Program-made: the position numbers and the translations under genes | NCBI GenBank assembly: GCA_045635825.1 | Contig: JAZTWM010000015.1 | Coordinates: 6,786-70,785 of the forward strand | Source: Candidatus Enterousia sp. | Lineage (GTDB): Bacteria; Pseudomonadota; Alphaproteobacteria; Rs-D84 | Length of the DNA stretch: 64,000 bases | Direction of reading: 5' to 3' | The notes under the pieces: model-generated | The model's database searches: none | Seen by the model: the letters and a program-made list of their open reading frames with translations, nothing else | What the model was told of the DNA's origin: nothing | Shown: piece after piece, positions 4,154-11,466 of the stretch | Layout of the letters: every line of letters starts with the position of its first letter | Position numbering within the stretch: the first letter of the stretch is position 1

Positions 4154-5404
4154 CTATCTCTTTTGCTTGTACGCCAAGACATATGGCACAAATTTTTCGG
4201 CGTGCGTATCACCCAACCAGACACGTGGAATCAAAATCGCATTCCCCATACCGGCCGCCATCTTGTCGATAACTTCGCCATTTTTGGCATTTCTTAACTC
4301 TGGTAATTTCACCGTCACAGAATCCATCGTCCCTGGCAGAATAAATGTGATTTCATCACCCGCGCGTGTTTCGTTACGCAATTCAAATGTAATATTTTCA
4401 TCGTCCACTGCAGTAATTACACCGGCTGCATGAAAGTTTGATGTACTGCGTGTTGTTTCGTAATTATGTGCATCTGCCGTCACAGGTCCATCAAAAAATG
4501 CCGTTGTATAACCACGTGTTTCCAATCGGTTCAGGTTTTCCATAAATGGTGTGGGATCAAAGTTTTCAGGGTCACGTGCATAGGTATCTAATGCACAACG
4601 ATATGCATGCACCACAGAACCAACATAATATTCACTGCGATTGCGACCTTCGATTTTTAAAGAATCAGGATTAGCAGATACAACATCCGCCAGACGTGGC
4701 ATCAGGCATAAATCTTTGGAGTTCATAATGTATGCACCACGATCATCTTCGGTAATTGGCATTTCAACACCGCTGTCTTTTTCACGCAATACGACATCAT
4801 ATTTCCAACGACACAATTGTGCACACGCACCACGATTTGCTGGACGGCCAGTTATAAAATTAGACAACAGGCAACGACCTGAATAAGACATACACATTGC
4901 ACCATGAACAAAGATTTCCAACCCAACATCTGGGCATTCGGCACGAATGGTTTTAAATTCACTGTGTGATACTTCACGTGCCAGAACACATAATTTCGCG
5001 CCTGCATTCTGCCAAAACTTTACGGTTTTCGCCGAGCAGATATTCGCCTGGGTTGAAATGTGAATTGGCATTTCTGGAAAGTTTTCACGCACCCACATTA
5101 CAATACCAGGATCCGACACAATCAGGGCATCAGGGCCCAGGTAGCGTATAACATCGGCTACACGTGGCATATGTGCATATTCGTGATCGTGTGCAAACAG
5201 GTTAAATGCCAGATAAACCTTTTTACCGGCCGCATGCGCCAATTCGATACCTTGCTTAACCCCTTCGACATCGATTTTTGCGCGTGCACGCATTGAAAAC
5301 CCAGGCAAACCCGCATAAATTGCATCTGCACCATATAAAATGGCGGTTTTAAAGGCATCCAACGTACCCGCCGGTGCCAAAAGTTCAGGTAATTTCGTAT
5401 TCAT
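4154..5404 (-). CDS. Peptidase U32 family protein (YegQ/TrhP-like)
   Basis: Conserved U32 core including the E-x-F-x-x-G-A-M-C-x-x-x-S-G-R-C motif (IFVHGAMCMSYSGRCLL). Start trimmed to MNTK (5404), which has an AGGGGG RBS. The longer listed ORF would overlap the tRNA. Confidence 0.8.
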   Translation of the reverse strand: MNTKLPELLAPAGTLDAFKTAILYGADAIYAGLPGFSMRARAKIDVEGVKQGIELAHAAGKKVYLAFNLFAHDHEYAHMPRVADVIRYLGPDALIVSDPGIVMWVRENFPEMPIHISTQANICSAKTVKFWQNAGAKLCVLAREVSHSEFKTIRAECPDVGLEIFVHGAMCMSYSGRCLLSNFITGRPANRGACAQLCRWKYDVVLREKDSGVEMPITEDDRGAYIMNSKDLCLMPRLADVVSANPDSLKIEGRNRSEYYVGSVVHAYRCALDTYARDPENFDPTPFMENLNRLETRGYTTAFFDGPVTADAHNYETTRSTSNFHAAGVITAVDDENITFELRNETRAGDEITFILPGTMDSVTVKLPELRNAKNGEVIDKMAAGMGNAILIPRVWLGDTHAEKFVPYVLAYKQKR

Positions 5405-5497
5405 ACCCCCTATTTTGCCCCAAATAAATCCAAAGGCAAGAAATTTTATGATTTTTTTACTTGCGTTTGTTTTCCAGATATGTATAATGGGTGGCAT

Positions 5498-5573
5498 GCC
5501 GGTTTAGCTCAGCTGGTAGAGCGGCTGATTTGTAATCAGTAGGTCGTTGGTTCAAGTCCGACAACCGGCACCA
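5498..5573 (+). tRNA. tRNA-Thr (anticodon UGU)
   Basis: 76-nt cloverleaf folded by hand. Acceptor GCCGGTT/AACCGGC, D-arm GCTCAGCTGGTAGAGC, anticodon loop TTTGTAA, T-arm GTTGGTTCAAGTCCGAC, encoded CCA. Followed by a hairpin terminator at 5577-5606. Confidence 0.85.
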
Positions 5574-5636
5574 GTTTAGAAACGCACCATTTGGTGCGTT
5601 TTTTCTTTGGATTTCTTTGACTTTTTGATTTTTTGT
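5525..5636 (+). repeat. attL: 112-bp direct repeat (3' two-thirds of tRNA-Thr plus 63 bp downstream)
   Basis: Identical to 11355-11466 over 112 bp (compared by eye, base by base). Confidence 0.85.
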
Positions 5637-5782
5637 TGGGGGCACAAACCAGAAATCGCACAAGCAGAAAAATCGAAAATATAAAAGCCCTTTTTGATGC
5701 TTATGATGTACAATATTCTTCGCTTGAAATAGTGCTATATTAGCTCTTGAAAATATAAACATAAGAATATATCGCTAGTTTA

Positions 5783-6124
5783 TCATTCCCCATCTGGGAT
5801 TTCGGGGCTGGATACTTCGGTAATATCATCAAATGGGATTTTGGTTTTGACTATGGTGATGTATCGGTATTCGGGGTCTATGCGGGTGACCATGCCCGTT
5901 ATGGTGTCATAGGCATCGGTCCGATAAAATCGCACCGTTATCATCATGCCTTTTTTAATCAGCCCAAGTTTCCGTGACAGTCGTTCTGCGGCATCGCCAA
6001 TCAATTCCCGTCTGGGCTCCACCACCCGATTTTTAGCCAGCACCATCGCATAGTACCCACGCAGGGCCGCAAAAGGCATAAACTGTTTTGCACGTGCGGT
6101 ATTATCAGCCATTGTGTCCCCCAA
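5783..6124 (-). CDS. YolD-like protein (accessory partner of UmuC-type polymerases)
   Basis: 113 aa. Overlaps the polymerase gene by 20 nt, which suggests an operon. Sequence pattern resembles the YolD family. Confidence 0.6.
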   Translation of the reverse strand: MGDTMADNTARAKQFMPFAALRGYYAMVLAKNRVVEPRRELIGDAAERLSRKLGLIKKGMMITVRFYRTDAYDTITGMVTRIDPEYRYITIVKTKIPFDDITEVSSPEIPDGE

Positions 6125-7367
6125 CCAAAGTATTACGTTTGCGACCGGTGGACCTCTCGTGATAATTTATGCCACGCAGGACGGCATTCTTGCCAAACTT
6201 GCCCTTGATATCCAGCAATGCGTGTTGCAGTTTGCTTTCGCGTTCGTCCGCCCTTGTGTCCGCAAATAAATCCAGTTGCAGATGCACCGTATCCGCATCA
6301 ACCAGGTTCCCTAGCCCCACCGTCAATTTATGTATCGGCGTGCGTTTGTCGGTCGTTTCCCTATACAATCGCATAAACTCCGCCACCAACGATTTATAGG
6401 ACGATGTGTGCGCTGGCAATTTACGACTGCCCCCAGTTGGGCGTCGCACATCACGTGAATACCCCACCGACAGAGATATTTCATCCGCCACCAGATTCTT
6501 TTCCACCAATTCCAAGACCAGGTTATCGACCATTTCCTGCATCACAATCTGTGCGTCGTCAAAGTTATAGTCTTCGAACAGAATCTGGCCGTTGGACAGG
6601 GAATGGGATTTCGCCTGATAATTGTGAATGTCGGCAATCGTGCACGGTTCAACACCATTGGCATGGTCAATCAGGTATTCCGCGTTTGTGCCGAACTCAC
6701 GATACAGGGTTTCGGGCGGCAACTGCGTCACCCCATACAGGTCATAAACACCGTATTTTTCCAGTCGCCGTGCAATACCCGCCCCGATGTTCCAGATATC
6801 TGTTATCGGCCGATGGTGCCACAGGTGCTGGCGGAACGATTCCGCATCCAGGTATCCGATATGGTCGGGGACTTTCTTGGCCGTGATGTCCAGCGCAACC
6901 TTAGCCAAAAACAAGTTCGTGCCAATGCCAGCGGTGGCGCATATGCCCGTCTCGGCCCGCACCGCATCCATCAGCATTATCGCCATTTCTTTGGGCGACC
7001 GTTTATACATTTTCAAGTAAGGCGTGATATCGATAAAGCATTCATCAATGGAATAGACATGGATGTCTTCGGGTGAAATATAGCGCAGATAAATCCCGTA
7101 AATCTGGGCGGATACCTCCATATACTTTTTCATGCGGGGCATGGCGGTGATGTATTCGACCCCACGCGGGATTTCAAAGACTCGACATCGGTTGCGAATC
7201 CCCAGTACCTTCATCGCCGGCGTTATCGCCAGACAGACCGACCCCCGCCCCCGTGACGGGTCCGCCACCACCAGGTTTGTTGTAAATGGGTCCAGGCCAC
7301 GGTCAACCGCTTCGACCGAGGCAAAGAAACTCTTTAAATCAATGCAAAGATAAAACCTTTCCGCCAT
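6105..7367 (-). CDS. Y-family (UmuC/DinB-type) translesion DNA polymerase
   Basis: N-terminal LCIDLKSFFASVE and SIDECFIDIT catalytic motifs. 420 aa. Local GC about 50%, versus about 30-40% for neighbours. Confidence 0.85.
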   Translation of the reverse strand: MAERFYLCIDLKSFFASVEAVDRGLDPFTTNLVVADPSRGRGSVCLAITPAMKVLGIRNRCRVFEIPRGVEYITAMPRMKKYMEVSAQIYGIYLRYISPEDIHVYSIDECFIDITPYLKMYKRSPKEMAIMLMDAVRAETGICATAGIGTNLFLAKVALDITAKKVPDHIGYLDAESFRQHLWHHRPITDIWNIGAGIARRLEKYGVYDLYGVTQLPPETLYREFGTNAEYLIDHANGVEPCTIADIHNYQAKSHSLSNGQILFEDYNFDDAQIVMQEMVDNLVLELVEKNLVADEISLSVGYSRDVRRPTGGSRKLPAHTSSYKSLVAEFMRLYRETTDKRTPIHKLTVGLGNLVDADTVHLQLDLFADTRADERESKLQHALLDIKGKFGKNAVLRGINYHERSTGRKRNTLVGGHNG

Positions 7368-7370
7368 TCC

Positions 7371-7395
7371 GTGAATCAGTATAAACCGAATTCAC
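7371..7395. promoter_or_regulatory. Palindrome GTGAAT-N13-ATTCAC immediately upstream of the polymerase start codon (candidate operator)
   Basis: 6-bp inverted arms seen directly. Position is -4 to -28 relative to the ATG at 7367. Confidence 0.3.
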
Positions 7396-7458
7396 AGGAT
7401 GTCAAAAAGGATTGTATGGATAAAGAAACCCGCCCACATGGGGCGGTTTCAAATTTTA

Positions 7459-7707
7459 TTATTTTTTCTTTTTTGTCCCCGACCTTTCTGTCGTAGAATT
7501 ATAAACAGCCCATATCAAAGCAAAAACCCAACCAAACAACGTAAATCCTAAGAATAAATTTAGAATAAAAATTGCTGTAAAATTAATGTGCTTTCTGCAT
7601 GCTGCAACAATAGAAGGCAAAAAGTAGATACCGATTAACAAAACTAGATATATCATCCCTAATAAAAATTCCATAATGTCCCTCTTTTTGTTATTTATTC
7701 TACGCAT
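7459..7707 (-). CDS. Small 2-TM membrane protein, superinfection-immunity (Imm)-like
   Basis: 82 aa. Two hydrophobic helices with the ...RKH.NF.AIFILNLFLGFTLFGWVFALIWA pattern typical of Imm_superinfect-type proteins. A hairpin terminator lies downstream. Confidence 0.55.
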   Translation of the reverse strand: MRRINNKKRDIMEFLLGMIYLVLLIGIYFLPSIVAACRKHINFTAIFILNLFLGFTLFGWVFALIWAVYNSTTERSGTKKKK

Positions 7708-8072
7708 GAATAAGAATATGTTTTTGGCATTCTGTACATGTTATTAGATATAGCGTCCACAAATACTGGTAATATACCAACCATCCAACCAATCGGGAAT
7801 ACGTCCAAGATAACTGCTGGTGTATTTAATTCACGCATAACCGTCTTTTCGGAACATGCCGAATTAGATGACTTGATGGTCAAATCATTATTTGAAAATA
7901 TAACCATATCTTGGTCTGGCTTTATCTTGTACACACCGCTATCGGCAGATACGGTTATCGTATCTTTGGAATTGTTGTACAGACGGGTTTCATGGTTGCT
8001 GCCTATACCGATTGTTCCGCATGCTGATAAAGTAAATAGAATTGATAAGATAACAAACTTTTTCATAGGCAC
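7695..8072 (-). CDS. Lipoprotein (lipobox LSAC)
   Basis: Signal peptide MKKFVILSILFTLSAC. Overlaps the imm-like gene by 13 nt. Confidence 0.55.
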   Translation of the reverse strand: MPMKKFVILSILFTLSACGTIGIGSNHETRLYNNSKDTITVSADSGVYKIKPDQDMVIFSNNDLTIKSSNSACSEKTVMRELNTPAVILDVFPIGWMVGILPVFVDAISNNMYRMPKTYSYSCVE

Positions 8073-8119: not shown

Positions 8120-8506
8120 TCAATATGGTTTTTGGGATAAGACTTTTGATACAATTAAGTCAGCTGGTAATTGTGGGTGTGCCGGCAGGTCTGATACTAG
8201 CACCCAGTGCATATCATCGTGGACATGCAATTGGATTTCGCCGAGATAGGATACGATTTCGTATGTGTGCAGTTCGATTACCTTACCTGAATCTGTTGTA
8301 TGTTTTGCGATTGTAATAAGGTCGCCAACTTGCGCATCTATCCCCAATTCTTCGGTCAGTTCACGTTTCAGGCATGTTGGTCCATCTTCACCATCTTCAA
8401 ATTTACCGCCGGGATATTCCCATTCGCCAGCCAATGGCTGGTCAGCCGCCCGTCGCATCAGCAGAACTTTATCCCCATCTCTAAAAATCGCAGCAGTTAC
8501 TTTCAT
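8120..8506 (-). CDS. NUDIX hydrolase
   Basis: Canonical Nudix box G-x5-E-x7-R-E-U-x-E-E-x-G-U: GKFEDGEDGPTCLKRELTEELGI. Confidence 0.85.
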   Translation of the reverse strand: MKVTAAIFRDGDKVLLMRRAADQPLAGEWEYPGGKFEDGEDGPTCLKRELTEELGIDAQVGDLITIAKHTTDSGKVIELHTYEIVSYLGEIQLHVHDDMHWVLVSDLPAHPQLPADLIVSKVLSQKPY

Positions 8507-8514
8507 TTGTTTCC

Positions 8515-9567
8515 TTAGGCCTTGGTATAAAACGTTGTGCGACCGTTGCCGTGTTTGACCAGGTGGCCATTATCTGTCAGGTTGCGCAGGATTTTCTTTA
8601 CCGTGTCGATATTCATCCCTAAATGCTGGGCCAGTTCACCCGATGACCATTCGGCACGCACCTCAAAAGCCCCCAGGATATTTAATGCATTACGGGACAA
8701 TGCGGTATCCGTACCGCTGGCACGTTCCAGCTTGGATTCCAGATGGCGTTTTTGTTTCTGTAATGATGTGATAAAGAAATCCAACCAAGGACCATAATCA
8801 ACGCTGTCCGACCAGATTGTCTTTTGCGTGTCATGCAACGCACGATAATACATGCCTTTGCTGGCCTCTATAATCGATTCCATTGACGCATATGGCATAT
8901 ATGAATAACCGCTTTGCAGCATCAGCATCGTTGTCAATGCACGTGACATACGTCCATTTCCGTCCTTGAACGGGTGAATAGACAGGAAATGCACAATAAA
9001 CACGCCAATCACAACGATTGGATGCAAATAACGTTCTTTCAGGTTCAGATTAGTCCAGTCCAGCAATTCGCCCATCAGACGTGGCGTATCGAACGGTGTT
9101 GCCGTTTCAAATATAGACCCGATTTCATGACCGTTTGCGTCAAAAGCGGCAACACGGTTGGATGAAGTTTTATATTCGCCACGGTGGTCGATATCCTTGC
9201 TGGAATGCGACAACAGAATTTTGTGCAACTGCTTGATATAATTTTCATTCAATGGAATAACCGAATAATCATTCAAGATACGGTCGACCAAGTCGGCATA
9301 TCCGGCAACTTCTTCTTCGTCACGACTTTTGAAAGATGTTTTGTTGACGTTTTTGAACAGGGTTTCGATTTCTGCATCTGTCATCTTGTTCCCCTCGATG
9401 CGGTTGGACGAGCCGACGGATTCAATGGTTGCAACCATTCTCATGGCACGCAAGACATCCGGGCGAACCTTAATCGCACCGCTGTCCCAGTTGGCCTTAA
9501 AAACGTCCAGTTCTGAAATCTTGTTCAGCATTTCTGGCGTGATAATAATATTCTTCATATTTGGCAT
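8515..9567 (-). CDS. Fic family protein with C-terminal winged-helix domain
   Basis: Fic motif HPFKDGNGRMSRAL. N-terminal inhibitory-helix-like SNRIEG (S-x-x-x-E-G). Confidence 0.85.
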   Translation of the reverse strand: MPNMKNIIITPEMLNKISELDVFKANWDSGAIKVRPDVLRAMRMVATIESVGSSNRIEGNKMTDAEIETLFKNVNKTSFKSRDEEEVAGYADLVDRILNDYSVIPLNENYIKQLHKILLSHSSKDIDHRGEYKTSSNRVAAFDANGHEIGSIFETATPFDTPRLMGELLDWTNLNLKERYLHPIVVIGVFIVHFLSIHPFKDGNGRMSRALTTMLMLQSGYSYMPYASMESIIEASKGMYYRALHDTQKTIWSDSVDYGPWLDFFITSLQKQKRHLESKLERASGTDTALSRNALNILGAFEVRAEWSSGELAQHLGMNIDTVKKILRNLTDNGHLVKHGNGRTTFYTKA

Positions 9568-9983
9568 GTTTTTACACCTTTTTACACAATTTTACACGAT
9601 TCTGCACGAAAAGCAACGATTTTTTACATTTTTCTGGGCGGATTTAAAGCGACACTTTAGATTATCGAAAATTTGCCCACTAACCCATCCCAAAATATCC
9701 CGGCGGTTACTTTCATTTATTCAATTTATCGCTAATTATATCGCTAGTTTTTTTGTCGAAACTAGCGATATATGATTATCGCCCGGATTTTATCAAATGT
9801 ACACATTTTGTTTTCCGACTCACCCAGCAACAAAAAAACGTGTAAAAACAAACCTTTTCCAAGTGCCAAGCAATAAATTTCTGTCATAATAGAAATTTTC
9901 TGCAGTTTTACATAAAATTTCTATTAAGGCAGTTTTCTGCAGTTCCCCAGACGTATATTCATGCGTAATATCAGACCATATTT
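9568..9983. promoter_or_regulatory. Island control region with several repeat motifs
   Basis: TTTTACAC x2; inverted repeat TATATCGCTAGTTT/AAACTAGCGATATA; TTCTGCAGTT x2 spaced about 34 bp apart. AT-rich. Lies between the fic operon and int. Confidence 0.4.
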
Positions 9984-11183
9984 TTACAATGAAACCGCCT
10001 CGATATATTTCTGTGGTATATTGTTCAGCATTTCGTTTGTTGCACGTTGCATTGATTGACGGATTGGGTCTGCTGATAAATGCGCATAGATTTGCGTGGC
10101 GGCAATTGACTTGTGACCCAATGAACGGCCAATAATTTGCAGGCTAGAACCTTCCATTGCTTGATAACTGCCCATTGTATGGCGCAGGTCATGTATGCGC
10201 ATGTTTTCAATGTTGGCACGTTTCAATAACGATGCCCATGATGACTTGGGTTCCTCAAGATGTCCGCTTTTGCTGGTATCGCTTGGGAATAGCCACGGAC
10301 TGTCGCCCGCATCATTTCGCATCTGTATTAACAAATCCATTGCATGCGTTGTCAAAGGAATATTGACATCATCGCCGTTTTTAGTGTCTGCAAAACGTAC
10401 AAAGCCGTTTTCAAGGTCAATATCTGACCAGCGCAAGGCCAACATATTGCTGCGACGTTGTGCCAAAAACAGTGATAACAACACATAATTGCGAAATACG
10501 GTATTTGAATATTTCAGCGCATCAAGAAATCGCCGCAGCTCTTCCTGGGACAAATAGCGAACGCGGCTTTTTTCTTTGAATGGTTTTATGTTCTGTGCAG
10601 GATTTTCTAATCTGCGTGGATACCCCAATTCATATGCCTTGTTATACATGTGGCGCAGTAAACTAAGTGTACGGTTGGCGGTGTATAAACCACAATTGCG
10701 TTTTATCGAATTATGCAGCTGTGTAACCTCTTGCTGTGTTATGGTACGCATCTGGCGATTATGAAACGGCGCTAGATGTCTTTCAAATGTGATATTATTG
10801 TCATAAACCGTCTTAGGTTTTTTATACAGCTGCGAATGCTGGGGAAGATAAACATTCTTGTAATAGTGTCCCAAGGTCATATCGTTCAATGCGTCACGAC
10901 GTTCTGTTGCAGGGTCTTCACCATGTAACGACCGTTCTTTATATTCATGTGCACGCATACGGGCCTCGGCTATTTTTATCTGACCGACACGGGCGATTTT
11001 TACGCGACGTGGCATTCCTTGAAATTTAAGATACGCGAAGTATGTTTTTGCTCCTCCATAACTTACATGTACGCATAATCCATCCAATGACCCAGTATCA
11101 TAATATATGACTGTGCCTGTCTTTGGAACCGGCAATGCATCCAGTGTTTTATTTGTAAAGTTGATACGATTTGACTTACTCAT
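9984..11183 (-). CDS. int: Tyrosine site-specific integrase
   Basis: C-terminal catalytic region ...RIHDLRHTMGS... and ...IAATQIYAHL (R..H..R..Y). Adjacent to attR. Confidence 0.9.
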   Translation of the reverse strand: MSKSNRINFTNKTLDALPVPKTGTVIYYDTGSLDGLCVHVSYGGAKTYFAYLKFQGMPRRVKIARVGQIKIAEARMRAHEYKERSLHGEDPATERRDALNDMTLGHYYKNVYLPQHSQLYKKPKTVYDNNITFERHLAPFHNRQMRTITQQEVTQLHNSIKRNCGLYTANRTLSLLRHMYNKAYELGYPRRLENPAQNIKPFKEKSRVRYLSQEELRRFLDALKYSNTVFRNYVLLSLFLAQRRSNMLALRWSDIDLENGFVRFADTKNGDDVNIPLTTHAMDLLIQMRNDAGDSPWLFPSDTSKSGHLEEPKSSWASLLKRANIENMRIHDLRHTMGSYQAMEGSSLQIIGRSLGHKSIAATQIYAHLSADPIRQSMQRATNEMLNNIPQKYIEAVSL

Positions 11184-11354
11184 AATTCCATTTCCTTTAT
11201 GTTATTTTTTTGCTACGTATTTGCTACCGCGGGCATAAAAAAACACATAACAACGTTCATTTCCATTCAACATTAGCAAAAATCAAAACAAATGCAAGAC
11301 ATTGTTTTTACTAAAATATTCATCATCATTCATCGTTATTCATGATTAAGCAAA

Positions 11355-11466
11355 CTGATTTGTAATCAGTAGGTCGTTGGTTCAAGTCCGACAACCGGCA
11401 CCAGTTTAGAAACGCACCATTTGGTGCGTTTTTTCTTTGGATTTCTTTGACTTTTTGATTTTTTGT
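11355..11466 (+). repeat. attR: second copy of the 112-bp repeat (truncated tRNA-Thr 3' part plus terminator)
   Basis: Identical to 5525-5636. Lacks the tRNA 5' half. Confidence 0.85.

Follow-up and report, generated by a model that had tools for sequence, protein, structure and literature searches.

Genomic context of the Fic and NUDIX genes

The window analysed here, meaning the whole stretch of 64,000 nucleotides from Candidatus Enterousia sp. (contig JAZTWM010000015.1), carries a 5.8-kb island in which a gene for a Fic protein and a gene for a NUDIX hydrolase lie side by side on the minus strand. The island is delimited and made up by the following features:

5498-5573, plus strand: tRNA-Thr(tgt), the integration target of the island (ARAGORN; Rfam tRNA, 72.8 bits)
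5525-5636: left copy of a perfect 112-nt direct repeat, the att site (repeat search; 100% identity, spacing 5830 nt)
5783-6124, minus strand: YolD-like protein, in one module with the polymerase (module 5783-7367)
6105-7367, minus strand: Y-family DNA polymerase, with the YolD-like protein a separate cargo module
7459-7707, minus strand: superinfection-immunity-type membrane protein, 82 aa (PF14373, 5.6e-17; phrog_1039)
7695-8072, minus strand: predicted lipoprotein, 125 aa, beginning 47 nt after the NUDIX gene
8120-8506, minus strand: NUDIX hydrolase, 128 aa, MutT/NudG-like, a (d)NTP pyrophosphohydrolase by homology
8515-9567, minus strand: Fic protein, 350 aa, class II and SoFic-like, with a C-terminal winged-helix domain
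9984-11183, minus strand: tyrosine integrase with an Arm-DNA-binding N-terminus (PF00589, 5e-27; PF13356, 7e-9)
11355-11466: second copy of this 112-nt repeat, at the right end, with part of the tRNA copied in it

The left repeat takes in the 3' 49 nt of the tRNA, and the partial tRNA match at the other end (11336-11393) was weak in the Rfam scan of the island, which returned nothing beyond the tRNA and this partial copy. The locus thus combines a tyrosine integrase, repeats spanning a tRNA 3' end and cargo that varies among relatives, as expected of a tRNA-targeting integrative island, and the initial annotation was right to describe the Fic and NUDIX genes as island cargo. Very probably we are dealing with a small tRNA-Thr integrative islet of an uncultured alphaproteobacterium from gut or rumen, carrying a mosaic of single-gene modules that circulate independently. 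The superinfection-immunity gene is the last before a terminator-like hairpin (7446→7430), and the polymerase/YolD module comes with a promoter-like site of its own (7405→7378) and is richer in GC.

An intact class II Fic protein

The Fic protein scored 62.8 bits against PF02661 (E=5.4e-17; gathering cutoff 24), which places it in the Fic/Fido family. A regular-expression search located the catalytic motif HPFKDGNGRMSR, which fits HxFx(D/E)GNGRxxR, at residues 198-209, and H198, F200, D202, G203, N204, G205, R206 and R209 are invariant in an alignment of 20 Fic homologues, in line with the earlier description of the active site as complete. The same kind of search gave a single match to (S/T)xxxE(G/N), the N-terminal SNRIEG at residues 54-59, in which E58 is the predicted inhibitory glutamate. 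This element, which had been proposed to act as an inhibitory helix on the protein's own chain, is likewise invariant in the family alignment and aligns with SSNRLEG of PDB 8UQU; the PDB entries that match best, SoFic among them, are Fic proteins of class II with a winged helix-turn-helix domain. The overall fold of the AF2 model (mean pLDDT 72, but below 50 at residues 52-62, which include SNRIEG) agrees with class II structures in Foldseek comparisons. These findings support the prediction that the Fic protein is intact and, as a member of class II, intrinsically autoinhibited.

A preprint reports SoFic as a standalone defence protein of the Fic type (bioRxiv 10.1101/2022.05.11.491447), and our reference for comparison was this one-gene system against phages (Millman et al. 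2022; class II Fic SO_4266 of Shewanella oneidensis, PDB 3EQX/3ZCN; also EcSofic). The window protein resembles it in being a standalone protein of the same size class (~350-370 aa) with an N-terminal (S/T)xxxE(G/N) helix, the HxFx(D/E)GNGRxxR motif and a C-terminal winged helix. Furthermore, it matches the PADLOC profile for the standalone SoFic gene (PDLC03963, 4.8e-41, residues 40-347), its predicted structure matched 3EQX/3ZEC over the full length with a TM of about 0.55-0.6, and its relatives sit in defence-island neighbourhoods. However, it is only about 17-18% identical to SoFic and reaches 47 bits against the NCBIfam model NF046030, whose equivalog cutoff is 550, so that orthology is not indicated. 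Nor is its gene followed by a 47-aa gene resembling AS1, the downstream gene of EcSofic. Among solved structures the Bordetella Fido protein 8UQU is the nearest to it and, together with 3CUC and 3EQX, supports the family assignment.

Just upstream of the Fic start lies a further element:

9570-9607, minus strand: four copies of the 10-nt periodic motif CGTGTAAAAT (coding strand), found by repeat search

By alignment, this periodic repeat accompanies Fic in all contexts examined; it is a candidate promoter or operator.

A MutT/NudG-like NUDIX protein

The downstream NUDIX gene is intact and, as noted before, encodes a textbook Nudix box: GKFEDGEDGPTCLKRELTEELGI at residues 34-56 is a perfect match to GX5EX7REUXEEXGU (regular expression). 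Membership of the superfamily follows from 62.4 bits against PF00293 (E=5.7e-17; cutoff 21.1). The best PDB match was 2RRK (NudG; 1.1e-20, residues 3-119) and the best NCBIfam match a pyrimidine (d)NTP diphosphatase model. In size, fold family and the perfect Nudix box the protein is comparable to E. coli NudG (Orf135, a CTP/5-methyl-dCTP pyrophosphohydrolase) and MutT (an 8-oxo-dGTPase), but it falls below both equivalog cutoffs (NudG, NF007834, 93.9 vs 156; MutT, TIGR00586, 70.1 vs 97.9), as it does for NF008044 (64.9 vs 148), and it is carried on mobile elements rather than at a core locus. The (S/T)xxxE(G/N) inhibitory motif has no match in the NUDIX protein.

The protein also gave a full-length match (1.6e-33, residues 1-125, profile positions 7-130 of 135) to PDC-S07, a PADLOC candidate system consisting of a single NUDIX gene, a match that does not imply a mechanism. 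Relatives of the NUDIX protein neighbour defence-type genes in regions that are variable or mobile. In the papers found by our literature search, PDC-S07 came up solely as a label in PADLOC annotations, and no functional test of it was met with. The homologues available for structure prediction were all at least 81% identical. The most likely activity of the enzyme, exerted independently, is hydrolysis of (d)NTPs, whether canonical pyrimidine, oxidised or modified ones, and it could serve in pool sanitation or in defence as the candidate PDC-S07.

The Fic-NUDIX junction

The Fic stop codon (TAA, 8515-8517) and the NUDIX start codon (ATG, 8504-8506) are separated by the 8 nt that the initial annotation had counted:

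8507-8514, minus strand: 8-nt spacer, the junction of independently inherited Fic and NUDIX blocks

Indeed, homology to Fic-only loci ends at 8524/8525, and homology to NUDIX-only loci begins at 8512. A Shine-Dalgarno-like AAGGA overlaps the Fic stop codon and, with the tight spacing, is compatible with translational coupling. A scan found no terminator-like site between the two genes, and the co-transcription suggested earlier is plausible because the first such site on the minus strand is the hairpin at 7446→7430. The Fic, NUDIX, lipoprotein and superinfection-immunity genes are probably on one predicted transcript.

A probable insertion of a Fic cassette into the NUDIX gene

Repeat searches and alignments of the region upstream of Fic indicated how the two genes may have come together, and pointed to three elements:

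8512-9683, minus strand: putative inserted Fic cassette, consisting of the Fic ORF and ~116 nt of 5' sequence that belongs to it
9684-9721, minus strand: putative insertion scar, a duplicated NUDIX 5' end (-5 to +33), 82% identical to 8474-8511
9722-9809, minus strand: putative ancestral NUDIX upstream region, joined to an intact NUDIX gene in locus L111

The scar encodes MKVTAGIFWDG, the first 11 codons of NUDIX, then diverges and runs into a stop after 19 codons. The region upstream of it contains a promoter-like site (9803→9775), a TATAAT-like box and a 14-nt perfect palindrome (9737-9750 / 9759-9772). In L111, the sequence corresponding to 9809→9684 of the window runs directly into an intact NUDIX gene, which we interpret as the unoccupied site; L093/L094 lack window positions 9658-9738 and hence the scar. 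The Fic block itself (9672→8524, 95% nucleotide identity) recurs in an unrelated island that has no NUDIX. Homology around Fic begins, in five contexts, within a conserved 70-nt 5' region and ends at the stop codon, so that no downstream partner is conserved.

Because of the scar and the empty site in L111, the juxtaposition very probably goes back to a single, recent insertion of the Fic cassette. We infer this direction of the event over the opposite one, in which the 38-nt repeats would have recombined to give a precise deletion in L111. The divergence of three upstream contexts near -6 led us to consider whether the NUDIX 5' end is a site-specific att target; in an alignment of upstream regions, all that emerged was that conservation sets in at the start codon, and we do not claim such a target.

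Distribution of the two genes

Fic-NUDIX adjacency was limited to islands with the same integrase (L081-L086 and L093/94; identity to the window integrase 99% in L081-L085 and 87% in L093), indicating that these islands share it by descent. In every integrase-Fic-NUDIX island sampled (L081-86 and L093, ~86-96% nucleotide divergence), neither gene is disrupted. Comparison of the window with L081 gives a nucleotide identity of 96-100% for integrase and Fic, which then falls across NUDIX to 89, 81, 77 and 58%. A recombination breakpoint thus lies inside NUDIX, between a conserved integrase-Fic block and variable cargo, and NUDIX alleles differing by 14% of their amino acids have been swapped beneath a 98%-identical Fic.

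The window's own Fic had no exact entry in the contig index, and relatives from its cluster were taken instead. On at least 10 contigs (24 contigs read), a different island carries a Fic of 97.7% amino acid (95% nucleotide) identity but no NUDIX. The order there is integrase-HNH_3-Fic, the integrase is only 51% identical to that of the window, and nucleotide homology to the window is confined to 9672→8524. NUDIX was also absent beside 85-87% identical Fic genes in four further contexts, which adjoin type I RM, OLD-TOPRIM/AAA_15 and HNH genes. Among more distant Fic relatives, neither a NUDIX homologue nor a Nudix box was found near Fic at any of 80 genome loci (of which 74 extend 500 nt or more downstream) or 41 viral loci; RM, Gabija-like OLD/AAA_15, CBASS, KAP-NTPase and HNH genes are among the neighbours of Fic relatives. 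With the Fic-NUDIX DNA as query, plasmid collections gave two weak matches, both to Fic only, and phage collections gave none.

NUDIX, in turn, circulates without Fic. Relatives of 81-90% identity were found beside a serine recombinase or housekeeping genes, and copies of 63-71% identity adjoin TyrRS, HNH/ThiF or an SLFN-type helicase. Throughout L095-L110 (86% amino acid identity to the window copy), Fic is absent and NUDIX adjoins a 65aa-DUF2924-serine recombinase array; in L103-L110 it is followed by a gene of the same size as the lipoprotein gene, and nucleotide homology to the window reaches ~30 nt into the latter. No NUDIX relatives were found in viral contigs. A trace of Fic upstream of NUDIX was seen at one of the 55 metagenome loci with at least 1100 nt of upstream sequence, L114, where Fic is reduced to a 38-aa C-terminal remnant and NUDIX persists.

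Discussion

The initial annotation had ventured that the two proteins might form a modify/trim or counter-regulatory pair, and had named conserved adjacency as the check. Our survey argues against such a pair: none of the 121 distant Fic loci has a NUDIX neighbour, 54 of the 55 NUDIX loci have no trace of Fic, and the adjacency is kept only by descent. It does not recur independently, Fic of 85-98% identity lacks NUDIX in five other contexts, and no fused Fic-NUDIX architecture appears among the homologues of either protein. We therefore think it highly likely that Fic and NUDIX are independently circulating mobile-element genes united by an insertion, and not a conserved two-gene system. Since the cassette entered an island-borne NUDIX gene with duplication of 38 nt, adjacency and 8-nt spacing are, with good probability, by-products of that event and no evidence of a two-component system. 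The locus is ordinary defence-islet mosaicism.

The history that we propose starts from a Fic gene that would be a self-contained cassette, with its own conserved 5' region and ORF, coding for an AMPylase of class II that resembles SoFic. Homology suggests that Glu58 in the SNRIEG helix would keep ATP from binding productively until a trigger, presumably phage infection, relieves the block, and that the enzyme would then AMPylate host targets and so cause growth arrest. The cassette would have entered after codon 11 of the MutT/NudG-like NUDIX gene of the island, duplicating 38 nt of its 5' end, and would thereby have placed the NUDIX, lipoprotein and superinfection-immunity genes downstream of Fic, probably on one transcript. 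A role in defence is suggested for both proteins by profile matches and neighbourhood.

Fic may instead be mainly an addiction or stabilisation toxin, or a winged-helix regulator of the islet, with NUDIX as an unrelated passenger. Class I FicT toxins arrest growth, Fic adjoins the integrase in two types of island, and its winged-helix domain and the conserved periodic repeat in its 5' region, possibly an autoregulatory operator, would suit such a role. We nevertheless regard it as unlikely, given the defence genes around Fic relatives, the match to the SoFic defence profile and the failure to find a separate antitoxin conserved beside Fic. The class I toxin-antitoxin systems (VbhT/VbhA, FicT/FicA), like SoFic-AS1, do share with the window a Fic toxin and an adjacent small gene in one operon, both toxin and operon being predicted ones in the window. 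Here, however, Fic itself bears the inhibitory helix, the adjacent gene encodes an enzyme without the motif, and NUDIX, downstream through cassette insertion only, is dispensable for keeping a near-identical Fic. We rejected the reading of NUDIX as an antitoxin that supplies the helix, since its sequence lacks the motif.

Another candidate partner of NUDIX is the Y-family polymerase/YolD module, whose translesion mutagenesis from oxidised or non-canonical dNTPs a MutT-like sanitiser could limit, Fic being irrelevant. The MutT/NudG-like character of NUDIX fits this, NUDIX and the polymerase (93% nucleotide, 96% amino acid identity) occur together in the window and L114, and a polymerase remnant is kept in L093. 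Yet the polymerase is absent from L081-L086 and from all NUDIX-only loci (L095-L113), and its different GC content, own promoter-like site and separation from NUDIX by a terminator-like hairpin set the module apart, which makes the partnership improbable in our view.

EcSofic is leaky-toxic and is neutralised by the product of a downstream gene, AS1, of 47 aa (PMC12249575), a precedent for a nascent pair in which NUDIX tempers a leaky Fic, AS1-like or by degrading its co-substrate, or shares one abortive-infection pathway with it, the insertion having been retained for this reason. The close spacing with its Shine-Dalgarno-like sequence and no terminator, and the integrity of both genes in every island sampled, are in its favour. 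Against it, the NUDIX protein lacks the inhibitory motif, near-identical Fic is maintained without NUDIX on many contigs, NUDIX outlived Fic in L114, its alleles vary beneath a nearly constant Fic, and distant loci show neither adjacency nor fusions. Moreover, Nudix enzymes cleave pyrophosphate bonds, and the phosphodiester of AMP-O-protein contains none. We consider such a pair very improbable. That the capture of Fic has newly created a two-gene unit, with the Nudix enzyme buffering a leaky SoFic-type AMPylase by co-substrate removal or in the manner of AS1, is conceivable because, wherever the insertion has been passed on, neither gene is broken and the spacing stays tight, but is the least credible of these proposals.

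On a practical matter, a single cassette insertion can yield tight spacing and an apparent operon in a mobile island, which calls for caution in reading gene pairs from adjacency. With scar and unoccupied site both preserved, the locus offers a clean, datable case of a SoFic-like gene that travels, as a promoter-plus-ORF cassette of 1.15 kb, among islands whose integrases are unrelated, and of a mobile MutT/NudG-like NUDIX gene acting as a recombination junction for cargo exchange. Separately from any pairing with Fic, it would be interesting to see whether a (d)NTP pyrophosphohydrolase can be anti-phage, as this PDC-S07 candidate recurs beside recombinases and defence genes.

Fic and NUDIX genes within a tRNA-Thr island

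Perfect direct repeats of 112 nt, which take in the 3' end of tRNA-Thr, enclose seven genes, all on the minus strand:

5498-5573, tRNA-Thr(tgt), its 3' 49 nt inside the direct repeat
5525-5636 and 11355-11466, perfect 112-nt direct repeat
5783-6124, minus, YolD-like protein
6105-7367, minus, Y-family DNA polymerase
7459-7707, minus, superinfection-immunity-type membrane protein, T4-Imm-like
7695-8072, minus, lipoprotein
8120-8506, minus, NUDIX (128 aa)
8515-9567, minus, Fic (350 aa)
9984-11183, minus, integrase

The ORF list, the raw sequence, regular-expression motif searches and Pfam confirmed the adjacent Fic and NUDIX genes described in the initial annotation, and their location between the repeats supports the proposal that they are island cargo. 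Eight nucleotides separate the Fic stop codon (8515-8517) from the NUDIX ATG (8504-8506); the coding-strand sequence across the junction is ...ACCAAGGCCTAAGGAAACAAATG..., and a Shine-Dalgarno-like AAGGA overlaps the Fic stop. With a minus-strand promoter-like site at 9803->9775, a first terminator-like hairpin downstream of it only at 7446->7430 and a separate promoter-like site for the polymerase, a predicted single transcript of Fic, NUDIX, lipoprotein and Imm appears plausible. The polymerase promoter-like site (7405->7378; sigma-70-like, 11/12) is strong and lies just past the hairpin. The polymerase and YolD-like genes, with a GC content of 0.52-0.53 versus ~0.40 in their surroundings, are a mutagenesis/TLS module acquired separately. 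This module (5783-7405) is also found in the homologous locus L114, and L093 holds a remnant. The lipoprotein and T4-Imm-like genes (7459-8072) follow NUDIX on the same strand with a 13-nt overlap; in L103-L110 a gene of the lipoprotein's size follows NUDIX, and nucleotide homology to the window reaches ~30 nt into it.

Predicted activities of the two proteins

Regular-expression searches placed the catalytic motif HPFKDGNGRMSR at aa 198-209 of Fic and a single inhibitory-helix motif, SNRIEG, at aa 54-59. Pfam returned a Fic domain (5.4e-17) and weak winged-helix matches at the C-terminus. The PADLOC profile of SoFic, a single-gene anti-phage class II Fic system, matched residues 40-347 at 4.8e-41, and the score against the NCBIfam SoFic equivalog was far under its cutoff. 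The closest solved structure was the Bordetella Fido protein 8UQU (1.7e-35), followed by 3CUC, 4RGL, FICD and SoFic 3EQX, and a Foldseek search with an AF2 model (pLDDT 72, inhibitory segment modelled poorly) gave class II Fic proteins with a wHTH (4RGL, 7CB8, 8CIL, 3ZEC/3EQX) as full-length matches. The earlier suggestion of an autoinhibited Fic is supported by the presence of both motifs, whose residues (SSNRIEG and HPFxDGNGRxSR) are invariant across an alignment of 20 sequences with 60-96% identity, and we infer that the window Fic is an autoinhibited class II AMPylase. In Fic proteins, the inhibitory-helix Glu reportedly blocks productive ATP binding, a finding credited to Engel et al. in 2012.

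According to one report (bioRxiv 10.1101/2022.05.11.491447), SoFic-type proteins are standalone defence genes. Expression of one of them, EcSofic, is toxic, with dimerisation and the C-terminal domain being required, and is neutralised by AS1, a 47-aa protein encoded downstream (PMC12249575); the window has no such small gene.

The NUDIX protein carries a perfect Nudix box, GKFEDGEDGPTCLKRELTEELGI, at aa 34-56, and matched Pfam NUDIX (5.7e-17) and, over its full length, the PADLOC defence candidate PDC-S07 (1.6e-33), which in the literature found is an annotation label only. The nearest NCBIfam models were pyrimidine (d)NTP diphosphatase (NudG) and MutT, with scores under their cutoffs, and the closest solved structure was E. 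coli NudG 2RRK (1.1e-20). The best 120 of 315 homologues are 81-93% identical; where the source gives a name, it is MutT, (d)CTP diphosphatase or (d)NTP pyrophosphohydrolase, and the NCBI records with a name come from Alphaproteobacteria MAGs. Most likely, NUDIX hydrolyses (d)NTPs independently of Fic.

Neighbourhoods of Fic and NUDIX relatives

The comparative evidence does not support the functional pair, of modify/trim or counter-regulatory type, that had been proposed for Fic and NUDIX. The Fic family comprises >7,900 matches at E<=1e-20. Around relatives 25-65% identical, sampled at 80 genome loci (at least 500 nt downstream in 74), a NUDIX homologue or Nudix box occurred within +-6 kb at none, and the same held near Fic relatives at 41 viral loci. 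Relatives at 85-87% (L089, L090-92, L191, L192) also have no NUDIX nearby, their neighbours being type I RM, OLD-TOPRIM/AAA_15, HNH and similar genes. We consider decisive against the pairing the case of P0241, a Fic of the same 90% cluster (97.7% protein and 95% DNA identity), for which 24 contigs were read and ten places shown. Its island differs from the window's: it is arranged as 221aa-integrase-HNH_3-Fic, with an integrase only 51% identical to the window's, lacks NUDIX and has chromosomal sugar-metabolism genes directly after Fic; its nucleotide homology to the window is limited to 9672->8524 (blastn). The Fic-8 nt-NUDIX arrangement was found only in loci with the window's integrase lineage, namely L081-L086 (integrase 99%) and L093/L094 (87%), and these differ in downstream cargo: KAP NTPase, HNH, HsdM and T5orf172 in L081/L083, an HNH gene and a polymerase remnant, then the att repeat, in L093.

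From the NUDIX side, 55 of 80 metagenome loci had at least 1100 nt upstream, and only L114 showed Fic similarity there: the final 38 codons, joined to the region usually upstream of Fic. L114 is therefore a derivative that has lost Fic and kept NUDIX intact. The NUDIX homologues P0133 and P0137 (L095-L110, ~6001-6405; 86% protein identity to the window's) have no Fic beside them. They are oriented divergently to a 65-aa gene, a DUF2924 gene and a large serine recombinase; farther out, the cargo varies and is defence-like (UvrD helicase, AAA_13, CBASS). Because it sits beside a recombinase with variable cargo, NUDIX appears to be a backbone gene of a second mobile-element type. The neighbours of copies at 63-71% are TyrRS and a HepT-like gene, HNH and ThiF, or an SLFN-type helicase; recurrent siting beside recombinases and defence genes fits the candidate label PDC-S07.

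Canonical Nudix enzymes cleave pyrophosphate linkages, and the AMP on an AMPylated side chain would stay in place, which weakens the modify/trim idea. That the two genes acquired a joint function in the window's lineage we judge very improbable. The locus is a SoFic-like Fic and a MutT/NudG-like NUDIX, both of known kinds, within a mosaic tRNA-Thr defence islet.

Several arrangements were seen along the way. In L114, NUDIX genes cluster unusually: 4876-7565 holds the Fic C-terminal remnant, the intact NUDIX, two other distinct NUDIX-box genes (5968-6384 and 6404-7249, minus) and a NUDIX fragment. In L089 (3740-5220) and L115 (3253-4711), a ThiF-family gene and, after it, a small HNH gene flank OLD/AAA_15-plus-Fic cargo and NUDIX, respectively; by Pfam annotation only, this suggests a chromosomal hotspot taking different cargo. 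In L081 (3330-4912) and L082 (4634-6216) the gene for a large serine recombinase shares sequence with the tRNA-derived att just upstream of the integrase, which suggests tandem islands at one tRNA-Thr site.

Module boundaries and upstream sites

Homology by blastn fell into three blocks: integrase-Fic-NUDIX (window 11403->8144), Fic only (9626/9672->8524) and NUDIX only (8512->8147, or to 8042/8091 when past the gene end), the last two meeting in the 8-nt spacer. Upstream of Fic, 38 nt at 9684-9721 duplicate the NUDIX 5' end (-5 to +33; 82% identical); they encode MKVTAGIFWDG and diverge thereafter, and we read them as the scar of Fic cassette insertion. In L111, the homologue of window 9809->9722 (palindrome and TATAAT-like box) is continuous with an intact NUDIX gene, which we take to be the unoccupied site; L093/L094 lack 81 nt including the scar, a secondary loss. 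In five unrelated contexts Fic is preceded by the same ~70-nt 5' region, in which the motif CGTGTAAAAT recurs three to four times with a 10-nt period, and homology ends at the Fic stop codon; the mobile unit is therefore the ORF together with its promoter, and no downstream partner is conserved.

When the window is compared with L081, the DNA of integrase and Fic is 96-100% identical, and across NUDIX (8120-8506 vs L081 7758-8135) identity declines to 89, 81, 77 and 58%, the same Fic being combined with NUDIX alleles 14% apart in protein. Judging from this gradient, NUDIX is a homologous-recombination crossover zone between the conserved integrase-Fic block and variable cargo.

Immediately upstream of the Fic start, TTTTACAC(nn), CGTGTAAAAT on the coding strand, is repeated four times in tandem with a 10-nt period at 9570-9607, with a further copy at 9622-9636 and an inverted one at 9834-9850; the repeats may serve as an operator bound by the winged-helix domain of Fic itself, or they may be stacked -10 elements. 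A perfect 14-nt palindrome (TATATCGCTAGTTT / AAACTAGCGATATA) at 9737-9772 overlaps a TATAAT-like box; this region is native NUDIX upstream sequence in L111, and the palindrome is likely a repressor-binding site.
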